A stretch of DNA of 64,000 nt from NCBI GenBank assembly GCA_030264375.1, contig JASCQW010000081.1, positions 92,243,768 to 92,307,767 on the forward strand, in the 5' to 3' direction. Both the position numbers and the translations under genes were made by a program. Numbering within the stretch: position 1 is the first letter of the stretch; each line of letters starts with the position of its first letter. The notes under the pieces are model-generated. The model had not been told where the DNA came from. It made no database searches and saw only the letters and a program-made list of their open reading frames with translations. Positions 989-61,494 of this stretch are shown here, piece after piece. Origin of the DNA: Carcharhinus longimanus. Taxonomy: Eukaryota.

Positions 989-1012
989 CTGTCACTTGTT
1001 TCATCTTCTCCA
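989..1012 (-). CDS. Microexon, 24 nt, VEKMKQVT
   Basis: tttgttttcaatttatcag|TGGAGAAGATGAAACAAGTGACAG|gtaaaa. Confidence 0.75.
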
Positions 1013-1140
1013 CTGATAAATTGAAAACAAATATGGACTAGAACGTGGGAATATGGAGTCGTCGGGAGTCATGAGAATTTTGCACATTATTGGGTAAGTT
1101 TAGCTCTGTGCAAATGTGCACAACTGGGAATGTTTAATTT

Positions 1141-1424
1141 CGTCTCATAGCGCCAGAGGCTCAAATTCGATTGCGGCCTCAGGTGTCGTCTCTGCGGAGT
1201 TTGTACATTCTTCCCGTGTCTGCAAAGGTTTCCTCCGGGTGCGCTAGTTTCTTCCTGCAGTCCAAACATCTGGACGTTAGTTGAATTGGTTATGCTAAAT
1301 TGCCCTTTAGTCCTAGGGAGATGAGCAGGCTGAATTATGGGGATAGGGGCTGGGTCGGATGTTGTCGGTGCAGGCTTGACGGGCCCAATGGCCTGTTTCT
1401 GCTCCGTAGGATTCTGTGATTCTA
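1141..1424 (+). mobile_element. HE1-type tRNA-derived SINE
   Basis: Core ggagtttgtacattcttcccgtgtctgc...tttcctccgggtg and tail aatggcctgtttctgctccgtaggattctgtgattcta. Confidence 0.85.
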
Positions 1425-1654
1425 CAACCCACCCCAACGATTTTCAGAACCCAAGAAAGATGTGGTGCTGAGTTGCAAGTGTCTCCGACAGAGGCAGCAA
1501 TATTGAGAACGGCACCAGCTGCATGAAAGGCATTACATCTTTCGAAGTCAGTCTCCTTAGAGCCTACAAACTCAATCTTCACGATGTAAACTCAAATTAA
1601 TAACACACCATGTCACCATAAAACAAAATACTACATGGTCATTGGGTACTTTAC

Positions 1655-1681
1655 CGAGTTGTTTTCGATATCTTTCGCTTT
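1655..1681 (-). CDS. Microexon, 27 nt, ESERYRKQL
   Basis: catccctttttttcag|AAAGCGAAAGATATCGAAAACAACTCG|gtaaag. Confidence 0.83.
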
Positions 1682-1829
1682 CTGAAAAAAAGGGATGTAA
1701 CACACAAGTTATAACGCGCCAAGGAAAGTTATGGGATTATAACTCATAACAGAAATGCAGAGTAAACTTAGCATCTGTGGAGAGAGTAACATAATTAATT
1801 TTTCATTTCCAAGTGACTTCTTCAGAATT

Positions 1830-4600
1830 GGGGAGTGATACATATTTCTCGTCCTTGCGCCATCAGCTAATAGGAATGTTTTCCTTGTCTAACCACCAAA
1901 TCTGTCGTAAATTTGTACATCACTATATTAAAAAAACTTCTCTCATTCATCTTTGTTCCAACGAGAACAAACCCAGCAACCCCAAGCATATCTTGCAGTT
2001 AAACCTACCCATTCATGGATCGATTCATTGTAGATCATAAATTCTTACTTAAGAATACTCACCAATCTAGATATTATGCTCTCGTGGTGGCATAACTGAA
2101 CATTTATAAAGCTGATACTTCTGTCCTTTGTACCCAATGCTTCCTAATTGTTGGCACAAGGAAGGCCAGACAACGGGAAACGAAACTGTCGGACGTCTCC
2201 TTCGAGACTTAATCACTTAATTCGGCCCATCAAGTCTGGACAAACTCTCTGACAGCATATTACCCAGGTCCTATCCCTGTATCCATACTTACTTACCCAA
2301 CTAATCCCCCTATACTTCACATTCTGGGGCACTCAGAGGTAACTTATAATTAAAAGAAAAGACACGTAATATGCATATTGTTGGACCATAGGAGGAGACA
2401 GAGCACCCGGAAGAAATCCACGCAGACACGGGGATAATGTCCAAACTACCCACAGATGGTCAATCTAGATCACTGGCGCTATGACGCTACCCACCGTGAC
2501 ACTGTGCCTGCCCTTTGAACGGTGAAAGAGAGCAGTCGGTGTTTGACTGGTCGTAAGCTCTTGGCTGAGGAATATTGCACAACTGAGAAATCGAGGAGGA
2601 AATTGCCGAAGTTTGAGCGGGAACTCCGATATTTGGGTGCAGATTCTGTAAGTGGGACTTCATTTCAATGGGGCCAGTCCCACTACAATGAATGTAAAAT
2701 TCCATCCACTGCGTGAAACCCAAGATTCCATTTAGTTTTGTCTGCCACTCGATCGATATATCCTCCGACCTTCAAAAGTCAAGGAACATTATATTCCAGA
2801 CCCCTGTCTGCACTCACTATTTTGAATAATGCCATTAAAGCTTACTTCTTCTTTGCACTTCTGCCACCGAAGTGCATCATCTCACTCATGTTAAACTCAA
2901 TCTATCACTTCGCTGTTGTGGTCTGTTGGTATCACACTTGCTGTTTGTCACCCTTCCAAGTCTGGTATCATCGTTAAATTGTGAAGATTTTCTCTACATT
3001 CCAAAACAATTGCTGCCCTCAATTCAAGTCTTTCATCCAATAGGACACCAAACTTCATGTTCTCGAGTAGAAATGTTGTTAATTAATCTTTTATGCAGCA
3101 CTTTGATGAAGAATTCCATCAATCCATATAGACGGTAATTTCAATTGCTTTATCAACATTGAATGTTACGTCACAAAACCTTAAATAGATAAGGCGAGAA
3201 CTATCTGTCTTTTACATATCCATTCTCGCTAGACTTCCTCGAATTTAAGCTCTCCACCAAATATTATTTCTTAAACCTTGACCAAGGCAGGAATTAAACT
3301 AATTGGCCTGCAATTGCAATAACTGACCTGACATTCTTTCGTAATAACACTGTCACGTTTTCCCTTCTCCAATTCCTCTTGCTGCCAGTATGTCATCGGA
3401 TTCTTTTTAATTGCTCGACATACATTTCATTAGGTATGCTAGACTTTCCATACGCTTATCAGCACATCATATACTCTTTGTAGGACGAGGATGTACTCCA
3501 CCTCTAATTGCATTTTTCGACATCAGGTGTCGTCTGAGTTGAGGTTGACTTGCCTGTACACTAAAATCGTGTTCTGAAGTCACTGGGGGATCTAATGTAC
3601 GACATGAAGTGCGACATGTGGGCCAAACAACGCTTGGAGGTGTGGAGCTGTGAGAGCGTGTAGTGACTGGATTTCAACGTACTCATTATATACGTTTTAC
3701 TTCACACCACATTCTGTTATATTTGGCGTGACGGTCGCTTGTAATTCAATTCAACTACATGCCTTTTGTGCATTCTTTTCAGTTTTCATTTCATCATTTA
3801 TCTCAGTCATTGCCCATGCAACAGTGGTCTTGCTTCCATTATCCTTTTCCCTTATTGAGATACGTCCAGAATATACTTTAATCATTTTCTTAAAGTTCAC
3901 CCATTGCCCATTATTTTTCCGGTAACTCTAAATTTCCACGTTGCCCTGGTTAGATCCCTCCTCATCTAATAGAAATTAACCCTCTTCCATCATTAAATTA
4001 TTCCTTGCTCTTCTGCATTATTCGCTTCAACCACATGAATCGATAATAATTGTTACCATTTCCCCTCTCAGGGTGTTGCCCTCTAGAGTTCTCCATAATT
4101 GGAAACTGCATGCCTCTTTTTACATTTAGAATATACAGTTTTAGGAAGTTAGAGAATCCACCGTTTGGCTGGGTGAATTCAGGACCTGCTTAATGGTGAC
4201 CCTTATAATTCACTAAATTCATTCGTGGCATGTTTTCCGTAATCCGCTTTTTGTACTCCTCATTGTCCTTTTTAGACCACTCCTAAATTGAAGCAACTTC
4301 ACTCCAATATTCTTATTTCATGTTACTTATTCTTGTTTTCCACCTTTTTCTGGCGGCGCTTTTTCTGTGCCCATTAGTTGAACCCTCACACTAGCCACAC
4401 GCCTTGCGTAGTCATTAATCACTGTCCTGTTGAGCAAGAAACGTCTCTTTCTGAAGAGTTGTCCTCTTCATCAGAACACGTACCCCTGCCCCAAGAATTT
4501 AAAGCACTGCCTCCTCTGGTGCCATTCAATGATCCTCCCTAATTTCCCATTTCTATGCAGCAATAAGTACCCCAACGTTTACTACCTTTTTTGGTCTAAT
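1830..4600 (-). mobile_element. Heavily decayed CR1-type LINE, interrupted by a SINE
   Basis: Scattered antisense RT/endonuclease remnants, e.g. aaactaattggcctgcaatt (NxRPISL) near 3300; many stops and indels. Confidence 0.5.
2215..2513 (-). mobile_element. HE1-type SINE
   Basis: gagcacccggaagaaatccacgcagacacgggg is the reverse HE1 core. Confidence 0.8.
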
Positions 4601-5863: not shown

Positions 5864-5899
5864 CACTGTTAGCTGATTCTCTCTTGACTCTTACTTTTT
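5864..5899 (-). CDS. Microexon, 36 nt, EKVRVKRESANS
   Basis: tttgttatttattttag|AAAAAGTAAGAGTCAAGAGAGAATCAGCTAACAGTG|gtaagg. Confidence 0.85.
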
Positions 5900-7235: not shown

Positions 7236-7268
7236 CTTCAGTTGTGGATCGCTTTAATCTGTTCAAAT
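7236..7268 (-). CDS. Microexon, 33 nt, DLNRLKRSTTE
   Basis: gattttccttcacag|ATTTGAACAGATTAAAGCGATCCACAACTGAAG|gtgaca. Confidence 0.78.
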
Positions 7269-8396: not shown

Positions 8397-8423
8397 CAGC
8401 TTCTTTCTCATTAAGTTTTCTTT
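8397..8423 (-). CDS. Microexon, 27 nt, ERKLNEKEA
   Basis: tcattttcattaacag|AAAGAAAACTTAATGAGAAAGAAGCTG|gtaaat. Confidence 0.85.
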
Positions 8424-8629: not shown

Positions 8630-8665
8630 CTGCAAGTGAGAGGTTTCGTTCGGAAATACTGAGTT
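8630..8665 (-). CDS. Microexon, 36 nt, ELSISERNLSLA
   Basis: ggttttgtttttcag|AACTCAGTATTTCCGAACGAAACCTCTCACTTGCAG|gtaccg. Confidence 0.83.
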
Positions 8666-12290: not shown

Positions 12291-12317
12291 CGTTTTCTTT
12301 GTCTTTCAGAAGTTTTT
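12291..12317 (-). CDS. Microexon, 27 nt, EKLLKDKEN
   Basis: catcttttcctcaacag|AAAAACTTCTGAAAGACAAAGAAAACG|gtaaac. Confidence 0.85.
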
Positions 12318-13017: not shown

Positions 13018-13053
13018 CACTGTCCGCAAGACTTCGCTTTGTATTTTCATATT
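13018..13053 (-). CDS. Microexon, 36 nt, EYENTKRSLADS
   Basis: tttcgatttatttcag|AATATGAAAATACAAAGCGAAGTCTTGCGGACAGTG|gtgagt. Confidence 0.88.
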
Positions 13054-17771: not shown

Positions 17772-17798
17772 CCTTCGCTTTTTCTCTGAGTTGTATTT
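17772..17798 (-). CDS. Microexon, 27 nt, EIQLREKAK
   Basis: ttttaattactgatcgcag|AAATACAACTCAGAGAAAAAGCGAAGG|gtaaga. Confidence 0.82.
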
Positions 17799-19815: not shown

Positions 19816-19842
19816 CCAAATTCTCTATTGTTCTCTTTTGTT
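19816..19842 (-). CDS. Microexon, 27 nt, EQKRTIENL
   Basis: tatctctttctttag|AACAAAAGAGAACAATAGAGAATTTGG|gtagga. Confidence 0.8.
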
Positions 19843-23140: not shown

Positions 23141-23164
23141 CTTTATTTTCTTTGAACGTTGTCA
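23141..23164 (-). CDS. Microexon, 24 nt, VTTFKENK
   Basis: tattctgctccattag|TGACAACGTTCAAAGAAAATAAAG|gtaatt. Confidence 0.65.
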
Positions 23165-24269: not shown

Positions 24270-24296
24270 CGAGTTGCAGGCGAAGTACATCAGCTC
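24270..24296 (-). CDS. Microexon, 27 nt, GADVLRLQL
   Basis: tctgttctatttcag|GAGCTGATGTACTTCGCCTGCAACTCG|gttaag; weak donor. Confidence 0.55.
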
Positions 24297-24783: not shown

Positions 24784-24801
24784 CATACGAAGATTGCTTC
24801 G
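24784..24801 (-). CDS. Microexon, 18 nt, AKQSSY
   Basis: ttctcctttttggttttcag|CGAAGCAATCTTCGTATG|gtaaga; strong sites, atypical length. Confidence 0.7.
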
Positions 24802-27770: not shown

Positions 27771-30700
27771 GTGGTAGTGGTGACGAAAAGTGTTTTTTAC
27801 ACTATGGTTTTCTGTTCCCTGGAGATCTTCGATGTCACATACTTGCTCCAATGTAGAACCTCCCAGTCTGATCGGTCCAAATACCAGATCAATATTATTT
27901 ACCAAATCACAAGAATAACAATCTTGGTCTCTAGGTTATCCCCCAATTCATGTTTAAGCGCTCTGCAATTTGATTTTTTCAATCATTAAGCTTTTACTTC
28001 ATCGCTTTTCTTTCTTGCAAATGTTCCTCTTTTTCATAGAATTCAATATTTTTCCAGTTCTTTCGAATTCATAGCATCTTTCCTTCAACCTGAGTTCCAC
28101 AGGCATGGTCTTCGCCAAAATATCGCACTTCTCCAAAAGATCCTTATCTCTCCTGACGATAGTCTTGATAATGGGCATTCACCAGCATTACCCATTAACG
28201 AACGTTCAATGCCAATTCTGTGCTTGTATAGTCGAATTTGGACAGCCAGTTACGTTGAGCATCAGAAACGCTGCAGCAAACCCGCGTCTACTATTCCTAT
28301 AGTCAGAGCTTTACTTTAGCACGAGGGTAACGTTTGTAGCTTTCCATTTGCCTCAGAAGAATAGTCAATTATAACAAGATTATGTTTCAACCATGATTTT
28401 TTTCAGCCACACCATTGAATGTGTTGGACTTGGATTATTTTGTATATTTAGTTTGGTCAACCTTGAAATCTGGAGGGTCAGTTTCACTGCCAGTTCTGCC
28501 CTGTCCTCATCTCAAAAAGAAAAATACAAAATACAAGCTTTGAACTGATGCAATACTTTCATTTTGCGCCAACAGCCCCAGGAAAGTTTATATTCAATGA
28601 AGAATCTGTTAGGCATACGATAATGCAAAAGTTCATAGAAAGCACGTTGATGGATGACGTTCAATTATGTATACAGGATATTACTTTTTCTTGCAAATAT
28701 TTAATTATAAAATTACCCAGGCCAGGTCTGCTCTCACTGTGTTTGTAGAGGCCGCCCACTTATTAAGCACTATAAGTTACGGCCGTGCTTCTTCACAGCA
28801 GCTAAACCAATTCCTATTATGCTGTGATCATTTTTCCCTAATATGAGAGCATATACAATTGACCTACCTGACGACCTAATCGACGGGAACGACATCAAAC
28901 AATTTCCCCTTACATGTTGAATATCTGAGCACATGATCAAGTGAATACTACGTAATACACGTTGAAACTTGTGAAAACTCTCCACTCATTACAGCACTGC
29001 AATAGCTCATTTTGAATATGCTTCACGTGACCTGCTCACAAAGTCCCCAATACCGTGAAAATATTAAAACTCGAATAAGCTCTCCCTTTCGTCAATTTCC
29101 TCCCATACTTACAATTGGCTGAAGAACTTTCCGCTGGTTCTTTAATAAAATAGTAATTGATTATAATCGATGAAATATCAACGTTTTAGTTATAGTAAAA
29201 TATCAATTAATGAGATATATAAATGGCGTGGCATATTTCTCTTTGATTGCGCCGCTATAGATTGCACAATTATATGTTTGCACAACGGTTAGTCCGTCTT
29301 TATAATAAGTGGATGGAAAGTCAAACAAGAACAAACATGGCAGAGGGGTACAGTGATGCTTAGATGTTGTATTCCCCTTTTTTAAAAATGCGGTGATGCG
29401 TTCGCTCCAAGATAATTATGTGCCTGAATTTGCTCACTCCAGCATTTTAGAGTCGATTCTATTGCAGAATGCTTAATTCCCGTTCCCTTGGAAGCAATGA
29501 CCTGGGCCGGCATTCTCTGGCAGATAGGAAGTGCCCATATAATGTTGCCCATCACGATTACTAGAAAGACATTTGCTTTAACTTGCACCCACATTTAAAT
29601 ATGCTGACTTTTTTCTTGTTTCGTGGGCGTCTTTTATTATTCATTGACATTTTCTGCTAACGAAGTTAAAATTTCCTCGTTAATCTCATGTGACTGTGCG
29701 TTTTCTGAAATTCTGCAGGCAATCTGGGCAGTATTATCTAAGTGGATTCTTCCGGCTCACAGTGCATTTTACTTGTATTCGAGTAGAGAGTTGTTTTTCT
29801 TGCCTGCAGTGAATATATTCATAAATCAATTGGCTCTTTGAATGACACGGATGCTCAAGAAAGTTGTTTTACTCCAAATAGGTCCAATGCTAATAATGCT
29901 GGGATATCTGTTTCTGGACAGGATTTGGGAACAAACCTGCCTCCACACTTGGCTAGCGACTCAAGTTATGAATTGCAATCGCCTCAAATTTTCTTTTAGT
30001 TTGTGTGGCTCACTGGTGTTTATTTAGGCCGGGGCGGTGTGCCCTCAAAGACATTGCTTCTCCGCTTTCTCATAGATCGTTTGCAGTGAATGGCTGAACT
30101 CCAATGTGTGAATCTGAAACTGTTGCTTCAAACAAGATCCAGAATATTTTTGGCAAATGGAGTAACTCCATCGCTTTATAAATATGCATCTCACACCTGC
30201 AATTACTTAATCGGCTCCGGCGTAATTTTATGATGTGATGGAAAGTAATTCAACAAAGTCATTTATTTTTACCCCTGCATTCGTATTTTTAATCACTGAG
30301 GCGTTCCTTTCCTCATCTTTTCATTAGCACTTTTTCTGGTCTGCCAAAAACCCCTGCGAATATCAGCATTTTGCACGGTTTCAACATTATTCATTGATTT
30401 GGCTGATGAGTCTTATCCTGCTTTGAGCATGCTGCTCATGAATTATCGCCTCCTTTCCTCATTGCTGTTTACTGTCACTTCTCATGATCTCATATTGTTT
30501 ATGTTGTTCAAGGACCTTTGTTTCCAAACACTCGTCCTAGCTATTCCTGGATTCTCCCCGAAAGCCAAGGCCTTTTAAACTTATTGATTTGGACCTTGTA
30601 AGAATATATCAAAGTGATTCTCTTTTAATCGTAACTGCATAGGGAATATGGCGGTCTAGTGAGATTTAATACCTCATATAAACCAATCTATGAAATGTAG

Positions 30701-35041: not shown

Positions 35042-35077
35042 CGCTCAGCTGTTGAAGTTTCTCGCATTTTTCGAGCT
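35042..35077 (-). CDS. Microexon, 36 nt, ELEKCEKLQQLS
   Basis: ctttttaacttttcag|AGCTCGAAAAATGCGAGAAACTTCAACAGCTGAGCG|gtgaga. Confidence 0.87.
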
Positions 35078-35449: not shown

Positions 35450-35476
35450 CATGACTTGCATCTTGAAGTTGTGACT
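35450..35476 (-). CDS. Microexon, 27 nt, ESQLQDASH
   Basis: tttcatttctatttcatag|AGTCACAACTTCAAGATGCAAGTCATG|gtaaaa. Confidence 0.85.
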
Positions 35477-42502: not shown

Positions 42503-42538
42503 CTAAAGTTTGTATGGTTTGTTTTAGCTTATTCATTT
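42503..42538 (-). CDS. Microexon, 36 nt, EMNKLKQTIQTL
   Basis: ttcttctttaatctttcag|AAATGAATAAGCTAAAACAAACCATACAAACTTTAG|gtgaaa. Confidence 0.87.
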
Positions 42539-46570: not shown

Positions 46571-47469
46571 GCGCCGTCGGTTGTCAGAATTTGCTACCAC
46601 AGAATGCAATGAAGTCACGCAATTGTATGTTTTCAGGAAGTATTCCGATATAGCACTTAGGGTGAAGGGGTTAAAGGATCTGGGGTGAAGGTGGGGTCAG
46701 GCATGATCATAATGAATGGCGAAGCAGCCTCGAAGGGTCGAATTGCCTCTTTTTCTCCTATAATCTATGTTTCTATTATCTCCGGAGTCTTGGCAATGAG
46801 AACGTTTTGATGAAATGCAGACCTCTTAAATGCATATTCACAGGTCATTATGGCATTGTTCTTTCGGTGAACCTGATGTGCAGACATGATTTTTGTGTTT
46901 CCTGCTTACAACACTGATTATGCTTTAAAAGCATTTTATCAGCCCTGATTCACTTTAGGAAGTATTGTGGCCTTGAAGAGTGAAGTAAAAATGCAAACCT
47001 TCCCTTTTCCGATTCCTAAGGTACAATATTTGAAACTATGTTGCATTGTTTACAGCCTCAACGTTGTATTGGACTGCAACTGACGTACAATAACGGGGCA
47101 CAACTTCACATGAAATGCAAAATCTTACTGAGAGTTTTTTGTATCTTTCCAATGGGTTCAATCTTTCATTATTTCCATTGAAACGGCATAGTTTTCGTGA
47201 GTTACGAATTGCAACTTGAAAATAGCATCTTATTTGCATTGATTTACATGTTTGGATGGTAAAGGCAACCAATAGCCTTCGTGGCAAATGCATTGAAAAT
47301 ACTGTCGATTTTTTATACAAACCCTTCCGCAAACAGTTTGGACGGCAAATAACCAACTTATATAAATTCCGCTGCCATATAAATTATAAATTGCAGATAT
47401 ATTTACCCTTGGCGTAACGCAAAGGCACGAGATTTTAACAATTAATTGTGATATTCTACTAATATATAC

Positions 47470-47496
47470 CTGCAGTTTTGTTCGAAAGTCGATTTT
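47470..47496 (-). CDS. Microexon, 27 nt, ENRLSNKTA
   Basis: tttgcattttgttttag|AAAATCGACTTTCGAACAAAACTGCAG|gtatat. Confidence 0.85.
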
Positions 47497-47913
47497 CTAA
47501 AACAAAATGCAAAATAACAAAATCTTAAATATGATAATCATTCTTGTTGTCATAAGAATTCGGCATCACTGGCAGGATCAACATTGATTGAAAGTCTCCA
47601 ATTGGCTCCTGATAGGTCAAATCATTTGCTTGTACAGTTGCAATTGATGGCGCGTGCTTAGACCCTTTATTGGAGGGGCGGGTGAAGGGGCGGGAGTTTC
47701 ATCCCAGTGACGTGTCCAATTGACTGTACATTCCACCGTACATGAATAGAACGAAATGCAACACGTAAAGATAATGCTTACTTATTACTTGATGACTGCA
47801 CAATTGAAATAGATCATTTGTCAATAGTAAACTATTGCTTTACAGAAGGCAAGTTCAGCAAAGAACGTCAAGCTTTAGAGGTATATAAATTAACGTTTGA
47901 TGAGCTTGCTCAC

Positions 47914-47949
47914 CTTTATCTTGCTGATTGAGAAGTGCAGCGTTCAATT
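47914..47949 (-). CDS. Microexon, 36 nt, ELNAALLNQQDK
   Basis: ctttttgttttgataatag|AATTGAACGCTGCACTTCTCAATCAGCAAGATAAAG|gtgagc. Confidence 0.85.
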
Positions 47950-48401
47950 CTATTATCAAAACAAAAAGAAGAGAGTTAAAACTGAAAAAAGAATCAGTTA
48001 ATGATGTCTTATAGCAAAGCGTCCAGAAACACATAAACAATATTTTAGATACATATCGGGTCTAATAGGGGAAGGTAAAACAGCACAAAATTAATTTGAT
48101 TTTACAAGAATATTATATTATTTATGAATTTAATGCTATTTCATTTTTAGAAGAAAGTCAAAACATTTGTTAAATGTCGAAACATCGTATTGAGTTTATA
48201 CAATTGATATGAACGATCTGGATTTTATTTGGTGCACAGGTTTCTGGAAAATGAATTAATCAAGATAAAAATATATGCAGCAATCTGCATGGAATAATGA
48301 CATTTCTACGCAATCACTTGCATAATCAGTAATTTTGCATGATATTAATAAGTTAAATGGCAAGCAAATGCATTCATCATTAATCAAAATCAATGAAGTA
48401 C

Positions 48402-48428
48402 CATTGTCTTTGGCAAGCAGTTGCTGCT
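48402..48428 (-). CDS. Microexon, 27 nt, (K/E)QQLLAKDN
   Basis: aattctttttcag|AGCAGCAACTGCTTGCCAAAGACAATG|gtactt. Confidence 0.78.
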
Positions 48429-49407
48429 CTGAAAAAGAATTTCAGAGATCAGTACACATGTTAACCATAACAGCATGCAGTAAAGTTTGTTATCAATCTA
48501 CAACACTTTTCATGACAGTGGCAACCCGAAAATCGATGGTGAAGGCGTCAGTGATGGCAATCCCAAGAGAATATTGTTAGTTTCTTTTTTCTTGGAGATC
48601 GCTATTTCTGGCTGTTGCATGGTATGAGTGACGCTTGAAACTAACCAGAGCAAATTAAACTTTTCCTGAGTATTTTTGCCTTCTTCAGTATTTGAACATT
48701 TAAGACTGATACTGAAAAAGTGCTATTATCACTGTATTCTACTTTTTAAATTTGGTATTGAAAAAGTGTTATCATCAGTGAACATCCTACTTTTGAAATT
48801 ATGTAAATGTTTTGTTATATTACATTGCTCTCCAAACCTCTGACAGTGATATCCTAATGCTGAAATTATTGAGTCCGAAGGATCACAACCAATTATCTTT
48901 GTGATAAGTATTAGTTTAAGCAATAACAATTTTCTCCAGCGTTTCGCTCTTACTTTCTACTGCTACATCAGGTAGAATGCAGTCTTGATGCCGATGAATG
49001 ACTCATCTCTGGAATTCAGTTGTGGCATGCGTTTGGATGTAATGTACTCTGGTAATGGATGGCCCTGATTCAACCCAAGTTTAGTGGTTGTGATCAATTT
49101 TTTGTTAAAGAAGTGAAGCTACAACCCAGATGTATTTGCTTGTTACGTGGTGAAAGCAGCGTACATAACAGAGTTAACCAATCCCACAACCAACGGTTCA
49201 GATCTCATTTTTGCAGTGCTGCTACACCCAGTTGCGAATGGTGATGGACAATTACACAACTAACTGAAGCAGTAGGATCCACAAATATCTCGATCGTCAA
49301 CCAAGGTGAACTGGTCACATCAGTGCAAAAGACAAGGCTGAATAACGTGCAACGATCTTCAGCCAGTCCTGCCAGATGCATGTTCAATCACTGACTTTTC
49401 CGAGATT

Positions 49408-49473
49408 CTGGTGTTGTCAGACTTCTTACTGTGTTTACCCCAGTCCAAACGCCGGCATATCCACATCATGACT
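49408..49473 (+). mobile_element. Short Penelope-like end with 14-bp target-site duplication
   Basis: acttttccgagatt (49394-49407) and acttttctgagatt (49474-49487). Confidence 0.75.
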
Positions 49474-49489
49474 ACTTTTCTGAGATTAT

Positions 49490-50400
49490 CAGCATCACAG
49501 GTGGACTTCGTGATCTAAGTTGATTCAAGAATTTTCAAGAAACTCCATAGGGCACTGGATTTACAAAGGCTATGGAATCCGACAACATTTCAACAATAGC
49601 ACTGGCGAATACTGACATCTACCTGTCAAAGTGCAAAGTTATCCAGATACGACCTGACACCAAAACGCCAGATAACATAAACTGGCTAATTAACGTTCCA
49701 TCAGACTATGTCCACATTCATTAGTGATGAAATTTATATTCGGCCGTGCTATGGTGCATGACAACTAAGCAGTCACCTATTTGCCGAAGCTTCCACAGCT
49801 CCTGACTTCAATACACCCTTGTTAAAAGCATGCACTCAACAGGTGAGGTGACATCAAAGCTACACTTGACAGATTGTGTGACCAAGGAACCCTAACAGAA
49901 CTGAAGTTCACTGGAATCATGGGAAAAGTTTTCCACTACTTTGAGTCATACCTAGAAAAGTCGTAGCTGGTTGTTAGTGTTGGCGATCATCCTCTCAGTC
50001 CCAGGGCTGCACTTCTCACTCTGATAGACAGCTTACCTATTCGCTCCTCCCATCACAAGTGTACAGTGAGTGTAATATTCATCACTTACGAAATTCATTC
50101 ACTGAGATTTCTGCAAAGACATTTCTCAAGTTCACTCCTTCGATTAACTAAGACAACCGTTGTAGGCTCTCGGGAACGCTACCACATCATACCTCCCCTC
50201 CAAGGCACAGTGTACCAAACTGACTTGCAAATATATCGTACCTTATTATTGCTGAATCAAAATGCTGGAAAACGCTCCTTGGTAGAAACAAGGAGTATTT
50301 TAAGAGCATTTATTGCGGCGGTTCAAGACGGTTGCTCAGATTAAAAGTTTCAAGGGCAATTGAGGAGGGGAAATAAATATTGAGCACTCAAGTGACACTT
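49490..50400 (+). mobile_element. Decayed LINE (same family as 36860-38800 and about 62150-63420)
   Basis: Remnants KAMESDNISTIAL and DIKATLDRL; tail caagggcaattgaggagggggaaataaat. Confidence 0.55.
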
Positions 50401-50620
50401 CCAAATAGTCAACTAATCCCCTTACAGCAGCATTGCCTGTTCACCGCTCCGTGCGGTGCCTTGATCCAATTATACCCAGGTCCTTATCTATGCTTCAGAT
50501 GAACTCTAAATTTCTGATTGCAGGTATGCATCATCACAAGTGAACAACACATATATACATTCAAGTGAAGTATCAGTTATCTAACGTACATTTTGACTTG
50601 GATGCTGCTTGGATACTAAC

Positions 50621-50647
50621 TTGTGACTTCACGAAGTTTTTGAAGTT
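50621..50647 (-). CDS. Microexon, 27 nt, ELQKLREVT
   Basis: ttatcttcttcatcag|AACTTCAAAAACTTCGTGAAGTCACAA|gttagt; the only exon ending in A rather than G. Confidence 0.75.
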
Positions 50648-50788
50648 CTGATGAAGAAGATAATTTCAATTAAGTTGCATGATCCATTCTCTGAATGTAG
50701 AGATAAAGAGCAACAAGCATATTGCCCAATATTAAATATAGCACATGAACAACAATTCCACCGATTGGAAAGAGATTAAAGGCATTAC

Positions 50789-50815
50789 CTGCCCTCAGTT
50801 GGATCAACCTCTCAT
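50789..50815 (-). CDS. Microexon, 27 nt, DERLIQLRA
   Basis: cattccattttgcag|ATGAGAGGTTGATCCAACTGAGGGCAG|gtaatg. Confidence 0.85.
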
Positions 50816-50949
50816 CTGCAAAATGGAATGTTTTATTGGAAAGTAATTGCCGATTTAGATAAATATTCAGAAAGAAAGGAAAACAGTCACCCAACAATGT
50901 TCGCTTTTCAGTTCAATCATTCGAATCAACTCATGTTCCGTAGCATTGA

Positions 50950-53200
50950 AGGCCATACAACTGAAAGCAAATTATGCTCAAGTATTTTGAGTCATTTTGT
51001 GTCTGCTATTTTTTCGAACAGTCAGTCCCTGAGTTCCACCAACCTCCAGGTGAAGAAATGCTTCTCTTCCGCTAGCAACTTGTGTGTCTTTACCATGAAT
51101 CGACTTCCCTTGCTATGCATCCCTCAAGAAAAAACGAATGAATAGGCTTTATGAGGCATTCTATCCAGATAATTCATGATTATACGTGTTTAACCAGATT
51201 TGTTCTTCATCTATAGTGTTACAAAACCATATTCCGATCCCATGCAAGCTTTCTTCATACTTAAAACATACCAGTAAAGCAAAAACCCTCGTAATATCAT
51301 TTTTATTCCTTCTAATGCAATGAAATCTTTCTTATCTTGACGTTCCAAAATTGCATCCAGCTGTTGAATTATTGCCAAGCCAATATTTTATGTTGTTTCA
51401 CCATAACTTAGAAGCTCTGACATTCGCTCTAAGACTCCTGTACTGAACGCAGGTTGCCTCGTACCTTCTACGTTTTCCAGGTATCAGAAATGTGTATACA
51501 ACCATCATGCTACCTTTTTGATTTAATCTTCTTATTATCATACCACTTACCGTGGATTCAGTTGCTTGTCAACCTTCTTCAAATGTATTGCTTCAGATTT
51601 CTTTGATATGAATTATCTTTATCACCATCCACCCACGTGTCTTGTTCAATGATATCGTCCCTCAATTTACAGAACTTTGCTTCATAATCAAACACGCCTT
51701 CAACTTGCACGTTATTTGAAGTCGTCTTGATTATACTTCATCCATTTGAGACCAGATGTTTGGCACATCCTACCAAAAGGACATCACCTTAAGCAACCAC
51801 ACAGCAAACAAGCTCCAGTCAAGAAACAAGACTTTTTTTTAGTTAAACTTCTGCCTCTGAAACAAATTTGCTGTCATATTGTGACTGTTTCTTCGATGCT
51901 TTAGACTTATTCTTCCGTTGCAGACCGGCCTTGATAAAATCCAAATGAATCCATTTCAATTGCAGAATGAGATCATAGAACATTGTCGTCTTTTGGAGCA
52001 TGGGACGACATTTGTTCCGTTCTCTTTGGGAAAAAAAGGCTCTCTATCTCTCTCACCTTCTCAAGCCCCATAGCTCTGAAGGCATATTTCCTTCATCTGC
52101 CCATCTAATCTCCCTTTTTAACCTTTGTTTGAGACTATTTTCTCGTTTGTTTACCAGTCACAAGTAAGCTTTTATTAACACTGCAATGAAGGTGCTGTGA
52201 AAATCCCCTAGCTGCCACACTCTGGCATCAGTTCGGATGCACTGACGAAAAGTTTTGCATGGCCAATGCATCTTACCAGCACGTCTTCCAGACAGTGGAA
52301 GGAAAGCGGATCACCGAGAGGAAACCTACCCATTACACAGGGACAACGAGGAAACTGCACACAGACAGTGATGCAAGCCAGGAATCCAACCCAGGTCCCT
52401 GGCGCTGTGAGATATCAGTGCTAATTAGTGTTCCACCGTGCTGTCCCTTTGTGGGCACTGAGCTCCACATCATTGCCATTTGTTGTGTGGAGACTTTCCT
52501 CGCGAAATTCCCCTTGCCTACACCCCGGAATCTTTCCCTTTGCTAAAAACTCAGAACCTGCATGGTGGTGCCCTTGTACAGTTAATTAATGGAAACATTG
52601 TTTTATTCTTGCCTATCTGGTCAAAGTTTGCCAGAATCCTGTAGACCTCTACAAAATCTCCTACTAGTTTTATTTTCATAAGGGGGAACCAACCTAAAGT
52701 TCTTCAATCCATCCTTGCAATTGAATTCCCACATTCCTCGAATTATTCTGGTAAATGTCTTCTGCTAAAATCCTTCTTCACAAAGTGCAGTGATCAGAAC
52801 TGGACACCATCCTCAAACTGAAGCCTAGCCTCTGCTTTAGAATTGTGTAATATGTTTTCCCAGCTCTGACATTCAATGCCTCTATTAGTGAAGTTCATAA
52901 TGATTTGTGCACCATTCTCTCAATGCACCTTGCCACCTTGAAAATTCAATCTAAATATAACCAGATCCCTCAGCTCCAGCAGACTATTTGGCGCTGTACC
53001 ATCAGCAATTGGTTGCTTTTCGAAATCCCCTTTCCAACTCGGCATCACCTTCTACTTTTCTGTATTAAATTCCAGCTTTCACTTGTTTGCTTATTCTTCG
53101 AATCTACTAATCTGATATTATGAAGTTTGTTTTTCGTTAACCTTTTGTACATTTTGATAGAATATCATTCCGGACTAATTTTCAAGTAGTTTGAATTGTT
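50950..53200 (-). mobile_element. Decayed CR1 fragments with a nested SINE (about 52150-52447)
   Basis: Antisense CR1 motifs (gatcagaactggacacc); SINE core ggaaacctaccc...gcacacagacagtga. Confidence 0.6.
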
Positions 53201-54095
53201 GGCAATGCCAAGATTATTGCCAATTACTATCTGAGGGATGTTGGGCTACCGCCAGGTGAGGAACATGTTATCTTTTTTCTCGGGTGATCTAACAAAACCC
53301 ATGATTTGCATGCTAGATGATATTTTCACTGGACCATTAATCTAGTGGCCAAGGCTATTACTCACTTCCACCACAGCAACTTTCTGTTAATAATTTGGAA
53401 TTAAATGCGAGTCTCAGCAATGGTGACCATTAACTTGTTGCCAATTGTCATAATTAGGTTCACAAACTTCCTATCGGGAAGCAAATCAGATCTGTCGGCA
53501 AAATACGTAAAATAAAAATGAGTAACGCTCTGATCCAAGGCAATTGCGTCTCATTCTTCAAGAACTAGCAGTGTGAGTATTTGGACAGGGTAACAAGTAC
53601 GAACACAAAGAAGTTCCAAAAGCAAAGCAGTCGAATACGCAATTGATATATCAGAGTTAATTGTTTTCTCTTTGTTGAGGTCATTAAAAGTTGACATCCA
53701 TTTAGTGGAATCACAATGTCGACAAGCCTCTCTAACAACGGAAATGAAGTGCAATCAAATATATGTGTGATTCCATTGAAAATCTTAAAAGGTGAAATCA
53801 TGGCGCCCAGGATGAGAAAGGAGGAAAACACAAATTCAACAAAGTTGTGTGTTCAAAACTTATTTTTAAAAGATCTGCTGCAAGTGATTACCCTGCTATG
53901 TGAAACAAAACATATATTTGGAGGAATCGGTTGGAAAAAATGACAGGACAGCATTATCTTAACAGAAAGATTCCTAGAAAAAGGGCTAAACTTGGATGTA
54001 ATTACGTTCACGTTATACTTAGAAAATGTAGAAGGTTTGAAGAGAGACACAAGCATTAATATAGTTCTCAGGGTTCCATTTATGCATATTACCGG

Positions 54096-54409
54096 GGGCG
54101 GCACGGTGGCACAGTGGTTAGCACTGCTGCCTCACAGCACCAGGGACGCGTGTTCGGTTCCTGGCGTCGGTCATTCTCTGTGTGGAGTTTGCACATTCTC
54201 GCCGTGTTTGCGTGGGTTTCCTCCGGGTGCTCCGGTTTCCTCCCACAGTTCAAAATGTGCGGGTCAGGTGTATTGGCCATGCTAACGTGTCAGAGGCACT
54301 AGCTAGGGTAAGTGCATGGGGTTATAGGGATAGGGGCTTGGTGGGAACGTGGTCGATGCAGACTCGATGGTCCGAATGGCCTCCTTCTGCACTGTAGGAT
54401 TCTATGATT
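54096..54409 (+). mobile_element. HE1-type SINE, well preserved
   Basis: gggcggcacggtggcacagtggttagcactgctgcctcacagc...aatggcctccttctgcactgtaggattctatgatt. Confidence 0.92.
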
Positions 54410-54519
54410 TAAGGCAAAGGCTAATAGACGGACCACTTCAGTTTTTCGGCGAAGTTTGTTTATTAGTTATGTATTTTGAGACAGATTTTCACGTTATTAA
54501 CATATTCCGCAGGACTTAC

Positions 54520-54546
54520 CATCGGTTTTGTATTTCGTGTCCTGGT
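54520..54546 (-). CDS. Microexon, 27 nt, DQDTKYKTD
   Basis: ttattgctctcgctcag|ACCAGGACACGAAATACAAAACCGATG|gtaagt. Confidence 0.8.
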
Positions 54547-54690
54547 CTGAGCGAGAGCAATAATAAAAATCATCTTAGCCACAATATAAATCATAGGATC
54601 AAAGTTTATTATTATTTTTGTCACTTCATTCATCCTTTAAGAATACAGGAGGAAAGAACGATTTATTACTTGGAGAAAAAATCTTTTTAC

Positions 54691-54717
54691 CTTTCTTGGC
54701 GTCAGTGAGCTTTTTTT
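54691..54717 (-). CDS. Microexon, 27 nt, EKKLTDAKK
   Basis: tgtttctcaacag|AAAAAAAGCTCACTGACGCCAAGAAAG|gtaaaa. Confidence 0.85.
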
Positions 54718-56176
54718 CTGTTGAGAAACATCAACAATCACTTTGCTGTAATGCCGGAAAATATCTATGATTTGTTTTCATTGGCAATTCTTGATAGTGT
54801 TTACAACCACGATATAGGAGAATGTCACTAACGTAATAGCGAAGCACTGCCGCTGCTGGAGGTCAGAAATAAAAAGAATAAGTAAAGAACGGACTGCAAG
54901 GACGCTGTGCCATTCGGTGAGAGTGTGGACGATCTGACTGTGATTTCAAATTCACTTTCCTGTCCGCCAAAAACATTTACCTCCCTTGTATTTGAAAAAG
55001 CTTTCAAACTTAGATTGAATGAAATGAATTGCCAAACGCTTTTTGGCGCAGAGAATTCGACAGGCTAATGATATTCGGAGAGAAATAATATATTTGAATC
55101 TATATTTCTGATTGTTGAATTCTGATTTTAAACATTGTACCCTTGATCCAGACGTGCCCACAAAATTCTCATCTTCTTGCGCTGCATCTTATAAAGTCCC
55201 ATCACGATATTTTATGTTTCAGTGACATCACCTTGCGTTCTGCTGAATTACAATGCATAAAGTATCTTGTACGCGAACATAAAATCGGAACGCTGCTCTA
55301 TACCCATCGTAACTCATAAGCGTTAACTAGAACAACTTACGCTGTTTCATTGTTAACATGGCACCATTCTGCCACGCCACACCCAGTTGAATCTGATGTT
55401 TTGTTTGGAAAGTAAGCGATCATCTTTGAAGTTTAATCAGAACAAATTTAGACAAACTCTTTTAGCTGCAAATTTCACGCATCAACTTTTCCACTAATCT
55501 GGGGGTCCATCTTAAATTAAAATGCACGTGATCAAAAACAAGTATTTTCACTTTCATGCCATGAGTAGGTTTTGGGTTATAATTTCAGAAATTGACAAAT
55601 GTTACGTGGTTCTGCTCCATAATGCGATGCTGCCAAATTTAAATTAATATTTAAGCATATAACGGTTCGAATTAATTAAAAAGCAAAAATGTTAAAAATA
55701 ATTCACATACATAACAAGACACGTATCACGTGGCTAAAGAGCCCAATCCGTAAGCCGCTCCGCTGAAGACAAACCTGTGAAATGTTTTGGGTGGTAGAAT
55801 TTGTCTTTTGATTTGAGATCGCCGGCAATTCTTTCTCAGGTTCCTGTTCGGACCTCCTCTTGTTGTCTGATGTTCCCAAAAAATTGTGCTTTCAATCAGG
55901 AGGCCCTTAGGCCCATTCCGGCAGTTGGTTGTGGACAATGGTGCAGCGTTCCTTTAAAAAAAGAAGTCTACGGTTTTGCATAAAGGCGATTGCCTTGGTA
56001 CCAATTCCTTTTGGGAGATAGCATCATATAGTGCAAGTCTATTGGTCCCATCATGATTGAATGCAATTGAAGTCAATGATACAAAACATCAGACAGAACA
56101 CAGACGGGGAAACGTCTCCGTCATCGATCTTGTTCTGCAACGCAAGTGAAATCTTGCATTGTTGAAAAGCACTTAC

Positions 56177-56212
56177 CTGAAATTTGTAGCATTTTAGTTA
56201 ATTCTGTTTTTT
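56177..56212 (-). CDS. Microexon, 36 nt, EKTELTKMLQIS
   Basis: ttttctctttttcag|AAAAAACAGAATTAACTAAAATGCTACAAATTTCAG|gtaagt; only the phase-1 frame is open. Confidence 0.88.
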
Positions 56213-57039
56213 CTGAAAAAGAGAAAATGACCGACTATCGAGTAAATGACACCCTGTTAAACCACTGAGATTAAACTACGACTTTTACCTTGCAGTGTAT
56301 GGACTCTAAAAAACAGATGTTGAAATCTGTTATACAATTGCCACGTAACTCTTTAACATTCCATCCCAAGAGGCCGACCAAGTTAACCTACATTTCAATA
56401 TAGAGATTATCATGTCCGCTCTTGAAATTTCCCATGCCCCAGGTTCTCATAAGGTCTTGAAAGGGCGGACATTCTCTGAGCATTTTATAATTGTAGCTCA
56501 TGATGATATAGGCACATTTCCTGAGCAAAAATATACATGAAGAATATGTGTCGTATAGATTAATCCAAAATGAACTTATATTTTCCCTGTGGATTTCAAT
56601 AAGATAATTATTATGATCATTATTATTATAACGACGAACACTTAAACATTTGTTTCGATCAACTGATGACAGTTCATCCAGAGTTACAGTTAAAGATATC
56701 AGCTGCAATAACATAGCAAGACGATTCAGAAGTATACATTTTTAACGTTGTATCGAATTGTTGCACAAACGGAGTGGTACCGATCCTAGCTATAGGTCAC
56801 AATTTTACAACAGACAGATATTCTATTCTTCATCGCTCAGTATTTACTTATGGGTTTCTGTGTCGCTGGCCTTTCGTCAGAGGCGATAGCTTCAGGTCTG
56901 CCGATCCACATCAAGCATGTCTGACCAGGAGACTCCCCGGCTCAATGATGGATTTACAAGTTGGTAATAAATTTGTTTGCTGCATTAAGAGCATAGCTTC
57001 TGTGACCATCAAGTCCCGAGGTTTGCCTTGAGCCCAGAA

Positions 57040-58102: not shown

Positions 58103-58129
58103 CTTTGTCTTTTATTTCAATCTGTTTGT
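58103..58129 (-). CDS. Microexon, 27 nt, DKQIEIKDK
   Basis: cattgtctttacag|ACAAACAGATTGAAATAAAAGACAAAG|gtaata. Confidence 0.85.
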
Positions 58130-59847
58130 CTGTAAAGACAATGTTAACTTTAATTTAAAGGGTAGGAATCAAACAGACATATTTTCTTTGCAATCTTCCA
58201 AAAAATGGAATAAACATTGCGATCTACAATCTAGAGAAAACAATACTGCATTGTTCAATTTTCTTTGTTATGGACTTAAGTTTATTTCGAATTACTGTCA
58301 ACATTCTTATGTTTAGCATCTCTAATGCATCTAAAAATCAAATTGATAGTCGAGTTCCCTTATATAACATTATCCTGACTATTTACAGCGTGAAAGTTAT
58401 GCGTTTCGGAGACTCATTTTACCGATTTACTTCAATATACTTTTGTGCTTTCGCATTACTCCTCACGAAAACATCAACATTCTCGAAAGAGTCAGATAAC
58501 AGGTCGCAAGAAAGATGTTAAAAAAAGAAGCAGTCAAAGATTTCTGGGACTAAGTGTGCCTCACACGAACTGTGCACAAAATAATTCTCATGATAGGTGT
58601 TGGGAATTTTAAAGTAAACAGAATCTGCTGGAAATGCAACACAAGTCAACCAGCACCTTTACCAAAGTTCATGTGCCAGTTTCTTGACCTAAATCGTTTC
58701 CCCTTTTGACAGATGGGGCTTAACTTTTTGAGGGTTTCTTGCATTTTCTATTCGTATCTTTACATGTCTACGTAGAAACGTGCTGATATGGAATGTTTTG
58801 CACCACCCACTCTTCTCCTCAAGTTTGTATTTGGCCAAAGAAGGGATACTGGCTTATTTTCAATTCACTGACCTAGATACTCTGACGCCATTTATATTCA
58901 TTCCTTTCCACCCCTTTGCCCCCCCCCCCCCCCCTCCAACCCCCGCCCCCCAAAGTTACATCCAATACTGAAATCAACCAGTCAGTCATTTGATGGCATC
59001 AACAATGGGCTGGATTTTTCCTGTTCTTTGTAGCGATCTGAACAGTCAGGAATCAAGCGTGTTGAGCGGCGGAGTGTGGGGGTGGGGGCGGATCGCACGT
59101 GCGACCGATAGGGAGCAAGAGAATAAAATGCCATTGGTTTTAAGTAGCCACAGCATACGTCCAGGAGAAGCCTCCAAATAGACAATTTTGAATATTGGCT
59201 TGGATGCCCCCTTGTTATGCCCCCTGAGCCTCCCAGACGCTTCTCATCATGTGTTTCACACCCGGGTAGTCATCCTCCGCGTACTGTCTACCTTATTTTC
59301 CTCCCAGAGTCTTCTTGCTGAAGGAATAACACCTGACTTACAACACCGTATCTTCTTCTTGCATGACTTAGTGCAGTACTAGTGANNNNNNNNNNNNNNN
59401 NNNNNNNNNNNNNNNNNNNNNNNNNNNNNNNNNNNNNNNNNNNNNNNNNNNNNNNNNNNNNNNNNNNNNNNNNNNNNNNNNNGGCAAGGATTACTGCTGA
59501 TGGGGGGCATAAAACAAACCGCGAGCCAAATTACTGTAGACCAATGTGGCTGAGGGTATGAATTGAATCAAATGCCATTTCAGTCGATAAGAACAGTTAC
59601 GTCAATATTGGACATAATACACCGGACCACATGCTTGCTATAGAATTTCATAGCACCTGAAGATACAAAGCGTTGTTAAGCCAATGAAAATCTATCATAA
59701 ATGATGCATTTCTATGAACATAATCTCTATTCTTTCCATTATCCTAGAAACTGCGCGCTTTATTAACAATAAAACATTTAGGAATCAATGCGTTGCGCTA
59801 AAATTCCGAAATATTTCTGGCAGATATATAAGAATGATGGCACAAAC

Positions 59848-59874
59848 CTGACATTTTTATACGATTTTCTAGTT
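59848..59874 (-). CDS. Microexon, 27 nt, ELENRIKMS
   Basis: tttttgtttggataacag|AACTAGAAAATCGTATAAAAATGTCAG|gtttgt. Confidence 0.78.
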
Positions 59875-60555
59875 CTGTTATCCAAACAAAAAAAAATTGA
59901 CCCTCATTCCACGATCTTTGTTGGTTGGATGCAATTGTGTCGAAAATCTTATTGCGTATTTTTCCATGACTTTAAATAATTATATTTTGTATTATCAGCT
60001 GGACGTCAGCCAGCATTACAAGTAAGAGAAGATCATAAAATGTAACAAAGGGGTTCTGCCAGATGTTTTAAATTTGATTTACCAGAAAGAAAGTTGTGCC
60101 AAGTTGCTTAACCAGCTCGTGGCTACATTCGTGCACCTCCTTCCTTTTCATTCAAGTGATGCTTATGACTCTAGCACATTGTTTGCAATTCACCTGTTCT
60201 TTTCAAACACTTTCACAGAAACCGCTGACATGAATTGCTTTTTAAACGTATTATCAAAATTTTCAAATGCATTAATTTCAAATGAAGACTTTACATGTTT
60301 TTGATGCCTCCGATCTAGATGTTTTCCAACTCTGAGTCACTGGGCATAACTGCTAGACTCAGGAATACCAGTATTGCTTTTTGAAGATTAGTTCAGTAAA
60401 CGGAAGGAAGCACATTTGATTTGCATTCGGCCTTCTCTTAAAATGGTCTGTGAGAAAAAAATGTACATCAATCCCTCAACGCCTTCCAGCAGCTCAAAGA
60501 TAACATTCAGAAGTGCAGAATCACGTAAGCTGTCACGAGTGTTTCTCAGAAATGT

Positions 60556-60933
60556 GATTTGATTTGATTTATTACTGTCACATGTATTAGCAGACAGTTA
60601 GAAATATTGTTTCTCGCGTGTTATGCAGATAGAGCATACCGTTCATTGAGAAGGCAAATACAGAGTGCAGAATGTATCGTTCTTGTCATAGCTAGGGTGT
60701 GAAGAATGATTAACTTAATGCAAGATAGGTCCATTCAAAAGTCTGATGGCAGCATGGAAGAAACTACTCTTGAGTCGGTTGGTCTGTGACCTCAGACTTA
60801 TGTATCATTTTCCCGACCGAAGAAAGTGGAAGGGAGAATATTCAGGGTGCGTAGGGTCCTTAATTGATTTGCCGAGGCAACGGGAAGAGCAGACAGAGTC
60901 AATGGATGGAAGGCTTGTTTGCGTGATGGATTG
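60556..60933 (-). mobile_element. Rex/Babar-type LINE 3' end
   Basis: (gattt)n tail then sequence antisense to 33575-34200. Confidence 0.75.
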
Positions 60934-61467
60934 AATATATCGAGATGCGATCATTGTTTCAGTGATAATTGTTTCCTATTATTACAAACTAAATGTGCCA
61001 GAGTTATATCTTACAGCATTGGCTTATCCAACTTGTCATAATTGTTGAAAACTTGAACAATGTTACCTCATTTAATTAACCATCAATGAAAGGTAAAATG
61101 AGTGCCTTGTTTTTCAAACGTTTTTCCTTTAAATAGTAGCAACATTCCTGTGACGTTGTAAATTGTTCTGTTTAACTGCAATAGGGTGACGCTACGGAGG
61201 TCAAATGATGACATAAATGACAGAAATGTCGTGACTTACAATGAGAAAAATGTATAGAATGTTGTGAATTTAACAAAATTAAACATAAAGCTTTGTTTAT
61301 TGAACCCAGTTTGCCCAACTTCAAACAGCTGGTGAGGGAAAATTGTAGAAGTACGCTGTATATTTCAGATGCTATGTGTTTTTCTTTCTGAGCAGATCCC
61401 TGAATAGATAATGCAATTTTTTTGAAAGTGGTGACTTCTATATCAAAGACACCTTTCTTATGCTTAC

Positions 61468-61494
61468 CTATCTGTTTTTCAAACATTTGATTCT
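61468..61494 (-). CDS. Microexon, 27 nt, (E)NQMFEKQI
   Basis: aatccctcatag|AGAATCAAATGTTTGAAAAACAGATAG|gtaagc. Confidence 0.8.
   Translation of the reverse strand, partial: RIKCLKNR

Follow-up and report, generated by a model that had tools for sequence, protein, structure and literature searches.

A microexon gene of about 408 kb in Carcharhinus longimanus, probably encoding a segmented coiled-coil rod with a B30.2 head

Enterophilins of the guinea pig, a mammal, are soluble proteins in which an extended heptad repeat (about 30-45 heptads of 7-residue repeats) is combined with a C-terminal B30.2 domain. A review lists enterophilin-1 as a binding partner of SNX1 that lowers surface EGFR (PMC13749957). 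In butyrophilins (BTN), short phase-1 heptad exons are followed by a B30.2 exon (PMC4046983, PMC8813856), and BTN genes linked with the major histocompatibility complex (MHC) are described in cartilaginous fish (PMC12841164); TRIM and BTN are used here as defined in PMC8813856. Here we describe gene A of the shark Carcharhinus longimanus (assembly GCA_030264375.1), which was followed up from a window of 64,000 nucleotides on contig JASCQW010000081.1 (hereafter C81), positions 92,243,768-92,307,767. Exon positions are given in window numbering, with negative values and values above 64,000 denoting window-equivalent positions outside it. An earlier note on this window had proposed a minus-strand gene built entirely of microexons and encoding a long coiled coil. 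Our reading, to which we give a probability of about two in three, is that gene A is an elasmobranch gene of about 408 kb for a soluble, segmented coiled-coil rod with a B30.2 head, which would act as a tether tuned by exon skipping.

The microexon array within the window

A generic splice-site scan of the window indicated a strong excess of two exon lengths on one strand. On the minus strand, 18 of 182 AG..GT candidates were 27 nt long and 14 were 36 nt long, with about three for each other length; the corresponding counts on the plus strand were 2 and 5 of 180. Stop-free candidates of 27 or 36 nt numbered 24 on the minus strand and one on the plus strand, as compared with a mean of 1.7 and a maximum of 6 in order-2 Markov shuffles (n = 60). 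The plus-strand and shuffled nulls, both asked for beforehand, were thus without a comparable 27/36-nt peak.

The exon set was built independently of the earlier note; 25 exons came from an automatic paralog chain and the two weaker ones (35476 and 24801) were added. It comprised 27 minus-strand phase-1 microexons running from 61494 down to 989, with a total of 783 nt and 260 whole codons (sixteen exons of 27 nt, seven of 36 nt, two of 24 nt, one of 33 nt and one of 18 nt). Joined in phase 1, these exons contained no stop codon, whereas the other two frames contained 20 and 21, and all 351 skipping joins among them were stop-free. The final base was G in 26 of the 27 exons, Glu or Asp was encoded at 21 of the 26 junction codons, and the resulting peptide had no Pro, a single Gly and an E/K/Q/L content of 52%. 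In agreement with the earlier note, the exon number, total length, final bases, junction codons and Pro and Gly counts were all recovered. The array almost certainly belongs to a real coding gene.

Gene A beyond the window, its orthologs and its paralogs

An array scan in both directions placed the whole window inside gene A, which extends on the minus strand from about 92,399,615 down to 91,991,290 of C81. Its array starts after a 132-nt ATG exon (155,848-155,717), 92 kb upstream of the window, in which the ATG lies 14 nt past the acceptor and opens a run of 39 hydrophilic codons. Microexons of the same strand continue the array upstream of the window (136,540 to 66,397) and downstream of it (-3,728 to -246,825). 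It ends, 252 kb downstream of the window, in a terminal B30.2/SPRY exon of about 510 nt starting at -251,963, with 169 open codons and a PF00622 match of 39 bits (cut-off 26.3); no Pfam PRY match was obtained. A terminal B30.2 exon below position 1, suggested in the earlier note, was therefore found. The coordinates given there cover just about 15% of the gene, and the description 'entirely microexons' holds within the window but not for the gene, given its ATG and B30.2 exons.

A conservative list for gene A contains at least 117 microexons (63 of 27 nt, 31 of 36 nt, 15 of 24 nt and 8 of other sizes, including one of 21 nt), with a median intron of 2.2 kb and a coding density of about 1%. The spliced-alignment chains also contain short fillers of 9-15 nt; these turn up in the nulls too and were left uncounted. 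As the list omits several plausible exons at the 3' end, the protein is estimated at about 1,400-1,500 residues.

The best match of the B30.2 exon was XP_038671249.1 of Scyliorhinus canicula ('zinc-binding protein A33-like', 945 residues), with 63% identity. The non-SPRY part of this protein was tiled by 80 downstream exons of gene A with 70 of 79 joints gap-free (score 2020 versus a null of 396; 386/624 residues identical versus 170/479), some of the short fillers being noise. A hidden Markov model (HMM) of the ATG exons of gene A and of its paralog B identified a second S. canicula record, XP_038671248.1 ('CENP-E-like', 430 residues), which has the same start Met and a 39-residue hydrophilic first coding exon joined straight to the first microexon, and which aligns gap-free through window exons 1-12. 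A word-index search with the 40-residue ATG exon gave no matches, and the fourth match of the HMM search, a 3,283-residue metagenomic repeat protein, was discounted as a coincidental match.

Searching with XP_038671248.1 led to Scyliorhinus torazame XP_072329363.1 (730 residues), skate XP_055520637.1 and a gene of the electric ray Narcine bancroftii. The torazame protein matched 24 of the 27 window exons (score 1176 versus 127 for the null) and ran on into the start of XP_038671249.1; because it bridges the two canicula models, these probably represent two parts of a single gene. The skate protein matched 26 of the 27 window exons (656 versus 110), and the Narcine X1 isoform scored 718 versus a null of 138. 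Conservation in related sharks, named beforehand as a test, was thus seen in two catsharks, and it extended to a skate and an electric ray. Nor is this an 'unannotated' gene, one of the options in the earlier note: other elasmobranchs have fragmentary RefSeq models under names such as CENP-E-like, EEA1-like, myosin-like and A33-like. The full chain from ATG to B30.2 was assembled from overlapping models.

Comparison of 15 Narcine isoforms with X1 (16 of 20 records were listed) showed that 13 differ from it just by in-frame blocks of 8, 9, 12 or 18 residues matching exon units, the other two differing at the C-terminus. Most of the dropped blocks correspond to window exons 1, 2, 4, 6 (an 8-residue block in the orthologs) and 8 and, in one isoform each, 11, 21 and 27. 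Symmetric phase-1 exons mean that any single exon can be added or dropped without a frameshift, and we lean slightly towards regulated length variation.

Paralog B lies directly upstream of gene A and is collinear with it at offsets of 316-394 kb, with introns 65-70% identical. It has an ATG exon of its own, 89% identical to that of gene A over 102 nt, and a genome search returned these two matches only. The automatic A/B chain joined 72 exon pairs (score 1282 versus a plus-strand null of 159) and covered 25 of the 27 window exons, the other two pairing less strongly. AG, GT and length were kept in all 27. Identity at the three codon positions of the window exons was 79, 80 and 67%, and the ratio of nonsynonymous to synonymous substitution rates (dN/dS) was 0.39 (bootstrap 0.26-0.59), a value biased downward because exon pairs were picked by similarity. 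Two adjacent B exons look dead beside intact neighbours, one having lost its donor (485,091) and one being 26 nt long (480,823), which indicates that microexons decay singly. An A/B similarity at 182-183 kb was rejected as a shared exon and looks like a remnant of a long interspersed element (LINE). Between B and A, the degenerate frames at 173,000-178,000 look like the remnant of a Gypsy-type retrotransposon.

Above B, a third array (C; C81:92.82-93.13 Mb) carries the microexon field to at least 93.13 Mb, and its exons resemble the 3' part of gene A. About 18 near-identical tandem 27-nt phase-1 exons with shared flanks occupy C81:92.99-93.10 Mb; this recent expansion of one microexon shows how such arrays grow. 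The start of array C was not found, and no B30.2 exon of their own was found for B or C in this assembly, where both end beside N gaps; that of B, at 188.8-194.3 kb, is 5.5 kb long.

The seven B30.2 exons closest to that of gene A among those examined lie at C81:94.27 Mb and at C119:6.33, 8.53, 9.02, 9.09, 10.68 and 11.29 Mb. Candidate exons of 27 or 36 nt upstream of these seven heads, counted as sense/antisense with 20-40 kb read for each C119 head, were 25/5, 13/1, 8/2, 8/1, 4/3 (weak), 5/2 and 8/2. A SPRY exon at C81:91.79 Mb was rejected as a family member, having no array (4 sense versus 6 antisense candidates in 80 kb), and served as a control. The family in this genome thus amounts to 8 related B30.2 heads and two headless arrays, with a second cluster, of six members, at C119:6.3-11.3 Mb.

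All 27 window exons have a counterpart in paralog B, and the first twelve also match the S. canicula protein XP_038671248.1. Exons 1 (27 nt, 61468..61494; skate and ray orthologs as well), 2 (27 nt, 59848..59874; 8 of 8 catshark residues identical), 3 (27 nt, 58103..58129), 4 (36 nt, 56177..56212) and 5 (27 nt, 54691..54717) are followed by exon 6 (27 nt, 54520..54546), a predicted interhelix hinge, and exon 7 (27 nt, 50789..50815), which is shorter by one codon in skate and ray. Exon 8 (27 nt, 50621..50647) is the only window exon ending in A. Exons 9 (27 nt, 48402..48428), 10 (36 nt, 47914..47949), 11 (27 nt, 47470..47496) and 12 (36 nt, 42503..42538) complete this group, in which 3, 5, 9, 10 and 12 were also placed in ortholog chains. 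Exon 13 (27 nt, 35450..35476) is weak, with 52% nucleotide identity to its paralog and a low-scoring fit to a 9-residue slot in torazame and skate.

The ortholog chains further include exon 14 (36 nt, 35042..35077), exon 15 (18 nt, 24784..24801), a predicted hinge with 50% nucleotide identity to its paralog, exon 16 (27 nt, 24270..24296), which has a weak donor, and exons 17 (24 nt, 23141..23164), 18 (27 nt, 19816..19842), 19 (27 nt, 17772..17798) and 20 (36 nt, 13018..13053). Between exons 14 and 15 the orthologs have 5-7 extra residues, and a possible, unproven 28th exon lies there (29113..29139, 27 nt, or 21 nt from 29133); its donor is kept in paralog B, where the length differs. Exon 21 (27 nt, 12291..12317) matches skate and ray, the torazame model being shorter. 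Exons 22 (36 nt, 8630..8665), 23 (27 nt, 8397..8423), 24 (33 nt, 7236..7268) and 25 (36 nt, 5864..5899; predicted hinge) were again found in ortholog chains. The last two are not in the torazame model: exon 26 (27 nt, 1655..1681) has weak skate and ray matches and exon 27 (24 nt, 989..1012) matches both. The introns of the window are full of LINE-like remnants and very high-copy repeats of the short interspersed element type, whose depth reaches millions, for example at 54,095-54,409, 52,152-52,448 and 49,182-49,478; long open reading frames in the window were rejected as genes, being repeat remnants or N runs.

The predicted protein and competing readings

In the protein, a short acidic head would precede a segmented coiled-coil rod, with a B30.2 domain at the C-terminal end, and rod and B30.2 probably form one chain. 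The B30.2 domain is predicted to bind a target protein, and the rod would be a tether, adjusted in length when single exons are skipped, duplicated or lost. Such a protein could serve as a spacer or scaffold linking the B30.2 target to the cytoskeleton or to membrane traffic, by analogy with its closest functional models, the BG-derived zipper protein and enterophilin; we put forward this cytosolic tether role tentatively, at slightly under even odds.

Structure prediction of the torazame ortholog by AlphaFold (four sequences; mean predicted local distance difference test score, pLDDT, 71; predicted template modelling score 0.19) gave seven helices, each 52-129 residues long, with low-confidence hinges between them and a disordered N-terminus in front. 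Hydrophobic residues peaked at fixed columns in both the 36-nt and the 27-nt exon classes, and one exon of each class together encodes 21 residues, or three heptads. With a positive heptad autocorrelation of the window peptide, given below, these results support the proposal that phase-1 microexons of a real elasmobranch gene encode long heptad-periodic helices. The rod of gene A exceeds 1,100 residues and its N-terminus is hydrophilic. No transmembrane or signal-like stretch was found in six ortholog and paralog proteins, where the highest 19-residue hydropathy was 0.4-1.35 (0.66 in the gene A rod) and the usual transmembrane level is about 1.6-1.8. Pfam Ig, RING and B-box models gave no match in five ortholog proteins. 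We infer that the protein is cytosolic and that the helices pair into a coiled coil, which would measure about 180 nm when fully extended at 0.15 nm per residue.

BTN genes on C81 have one or two 27-nt exons between the transmembrane and B30.2 exons. Two compact butyrophilin-like genes at C81:100.45 and 99.72 Mb combine IgV, one or more 27-nt exons and B30.2, with a likely transmembrane exon in the first. Because these two neighbours carry 27-nt exons, gene A may have originated by runaway duplication of a BTN-type 27-nt exon in front of a B30.2 exon, together with loss of the extracellular part. The BTN kinship suggested in the earlier note thus survives as a likely origin, but not in the form of a membrane-protein tail.

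Several observations weigh against the reading of gene A as a single rod-and-B30.2 gene of BTN-type origin. In a midpoint-rooted B30.2 tree of 31 rows (the 10.68 Mb head and two controls were dropped, no frame being extracted), the head of gene A, six family heads and the catshark head formed one clade (100/100) on a long branch, separate from TRIM, BTN (2 rows) and teleost A33-like heads; there was no grouping with BTN, so the tree gives no support to a BTN-type origin. The exon at -112,181 has T as its last base, against a G deduced from the catshark protein; its donor is weakened, and with the next exon it would form TAA, so that a full-length chain needs this exon to be skipped; it may represent an allele, an assembly error or an exon loss. 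The 5' side of the ATG exon is phase-1 compatible, which would allow further coding exons upstream or read-through from B. None of the database proteins runs all the way from ATG to B30.2; the models from torazame, skate and ray stop short of it. RefSeq models are predictions with an inferred RNA basis, and their isoforms may partly reflect aligners missing microexons. The heptad autocorrelation of the window peptide was modest (0.15, 0.08 and 0.18 at lags 7, 14 and 21; also positive at lag 28) and strong just near the C-terminus, with a period of 3.5. Loss of one exon of 9 or 12 residues moves the heptads out of register, so that good folding is not to be expected of every isoform. The bias in dN/dS noted above is a further caution. 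Lastly, the exon junctions of gene A are deduced here from genomic sequence. An RNA search with the B30.2 exon and its 3' flank listed no dataset. In four runs covering window positions 47,400-56,300 the contigs spanned introns like genomic DNA and contained no exon joints; in the same runs none of the 40 differences listed (518 more exist) fell inside exons, with about one expected, which is uninformative.

In a wider picture, which we consider fairly unlikely, sharks and rays would have a vertebrate 'micro-exon gene' system: hundreds of interchangeable phase-1 microexons, spread over an MHC-linked region exceeding 1.1 Mb, would be spliced into variable-length rulers with variable B30.2 heads. 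Given that the ATG exon is phase-1 compatible and that no B30.2 exon is known at the ends of C and B, transcripts might in this picture even run from C through B into A and encode rods of several thousand residues.

The main rival to the tether is a role in innate immunity, in which gene A would encode a TRIM-like protein without RING, a sensor or decoy binding pathogen or self ligands through its B30.2 domain and oligomerising through the rod. In favour of this role, gene A lies in a SPRY/TRIM/BTN-rich region of C81 with MHC class I genes about 3 Mb away (of 22 PF00129 matches, 12 are on C81, at 84.5-88.9 Mb), and it belongs to an expanded, divergent family whose B30.2 paralogs share 30-38% identity. 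The model of its head (pLDDT 84) had its best Foldseek matches in the PRYSPRY domains of TRIM7 and TRIM21, with a template modelling score of about 0.74. However, RING and B-box motifs were not found upstream of A and B, another chromosome, C119, carries five to six members of the family, and a rod of more than 1,000 residues is far above the TRIM coiled coil. We judge an immune role unlikely. Teleost 'A33-like' proteins were not the closest relatives in the B30.2 tree. Chordate clusters of 1,277-1,802 residues in the ESM Atlas, with a long coiled coil and PRY/SPRY (scores 0.93, 0.91 and 0.76; one named 'isoform X51'), are possible bony-fish counterparts and, given without sequences, a lead only.

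The window exons could mostly encode a rod without B30.2, the B30.2-bearing 3' half belonging to a separate or minor transcript. The early ends of the torazame, skate and ray models fit this arrangement, as do the annotation of two adjacent genes in S. canicula, the lack of a B30.2 exon in B and C in this assembly, and the potential TAA at -112,181. Yet the torazame model bridges both canicula models, of which the N-terminal half ends by run-on at a splice donor; in-frame, ordered exons continue unbroken up to the B30.2 exon, and B and C end beside N gaps. This arrangement is quite improbable.

A third reading, proposed earlier, makes the array the tail of a butyrophilin/BG-like membrane protein with signal, Ig and transmembrane exons further upstream. 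BTN genes are indeed laid out with phase-1 heptad exons ahead of B30.2 (PMC4046983, PMC8813856), the ATG exon has an acceptor 14 nt before the ATG and an open phase-1 frame that would allow upstream coding exons, and N gaps are present upstream. Against this, no Ig-V, transmembrane or signal motif was found in the 33 kb above A or the 56 kb above B, a result with a small doubt from the N gaps; the same motif patterns did detect Ig, RING and B-box sequences in neighbouring BTN and TRIM genes (RING/B-box in three TRIMs). None of 150 scored V-set matches, from 928 candidates, lay near the locus, and three catshark records and the ray models begin at the short hydrophilic head, the catshark ATG exon joining the first microexon directly. 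A membrane-protein tail is thus very improbable. That the array is a decaying or processed-out relic, untranslated in this species, is barely credible: the single dead B exons, the TAA-forming A exon and the 65-70% likeness of the A and B introns, because of which likeness alone proves little, are outweighed by 0 stops, 27 of 27 intact splice pairs, a dN/dS of 0.39 and an intact 169-codon B30.2 exon.

Comparison with known systems

Heptad microexons and B30.2 are each known singly; their combination, its scale and the clade appear undescribed. A literature search reaching few subscription journals found no description of this shark-and-ray family, and the words B30.2, SPRY, butyrophilin and coiled do not occur in the main text of the paper on the whale shark genome. 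RefSeq holds this apparently undescribed elasmobranch family as split, misnamed fragments from automatic annotation. With about 1% coding sequence and at least 117 microexons, gene A stands out as extreme among genes that grew by duplicating exons, and can serve as a benchmark for annotation that takes microexons into account. It also offers a natural setting in which to ask if symmetric microexons are used to adjust how long a protein rod is, and bears on the early shuffling of BTN, BG and TRIM architectures near the MHC in jawed vertebrates.

Butyrophilins resemble gene A in their short phase-1 heptad exons, terminal B30.2 exon and MHC linkage, and BTN3A1 was the best sequence match of the head in the PDB (E 2e-14). 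Unlike them, gene A has no IgV, IgC2 or transmembrane part that could be found, at least 117 microexons rather than a few, and a head that fell in a separate clade of the tree with its 2 BTN rows. TRIM-B30.2 proteins (TRIM7, TRIM21, TRIM39 and fish btr/A33-like) likewise combine a coiled coil with B30.2, and many are neighbours on C81; the exons of these nearby TRIM genes are long, with linkers of 23 and 33 nt. In gene A, no RING or B-box was found. As no signal peptide, Ig, transmembrane, RING or B-box sequence was found, gene A is most likely neither a butyrophilin/BG tail nor a TRIM gene.

Chicken BG and the soluble zipper protein share with gene A a long coiled coil from many tiny exons and copy-number variation. 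In chicken BG these exons number 13-36 and are 21 or 24 nt long, and there is a single IgV and a transmembrane segment but no B30.2. Gene A has 27-, 36- and 24-nt exons in more than three times that number together with a B30.2 exon, and no IgV or transmembrane exon was found. The zipper protein is described as a soluble heptad tail affecting the actin-myosin interaction in gut cells (PMC4046983). Schistosoma micro-exon genes (MEGs) resemble gene A in their many very short exons and long introns, and their variants are reported to arise by exon skipping (PMC10526429; bioRxiv 2023.06.21.545858). MEG proteins are short (up to 189 residues) and secreted with a signal peptide, whereas the N-terminus of gene A is hydrophilic, and no homology is implied. 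With the enterophilins gene A shares the predicted architecture of a soluble protein of extended heptads with a B30.2 domain, and this likeness is likely a parallel invention.

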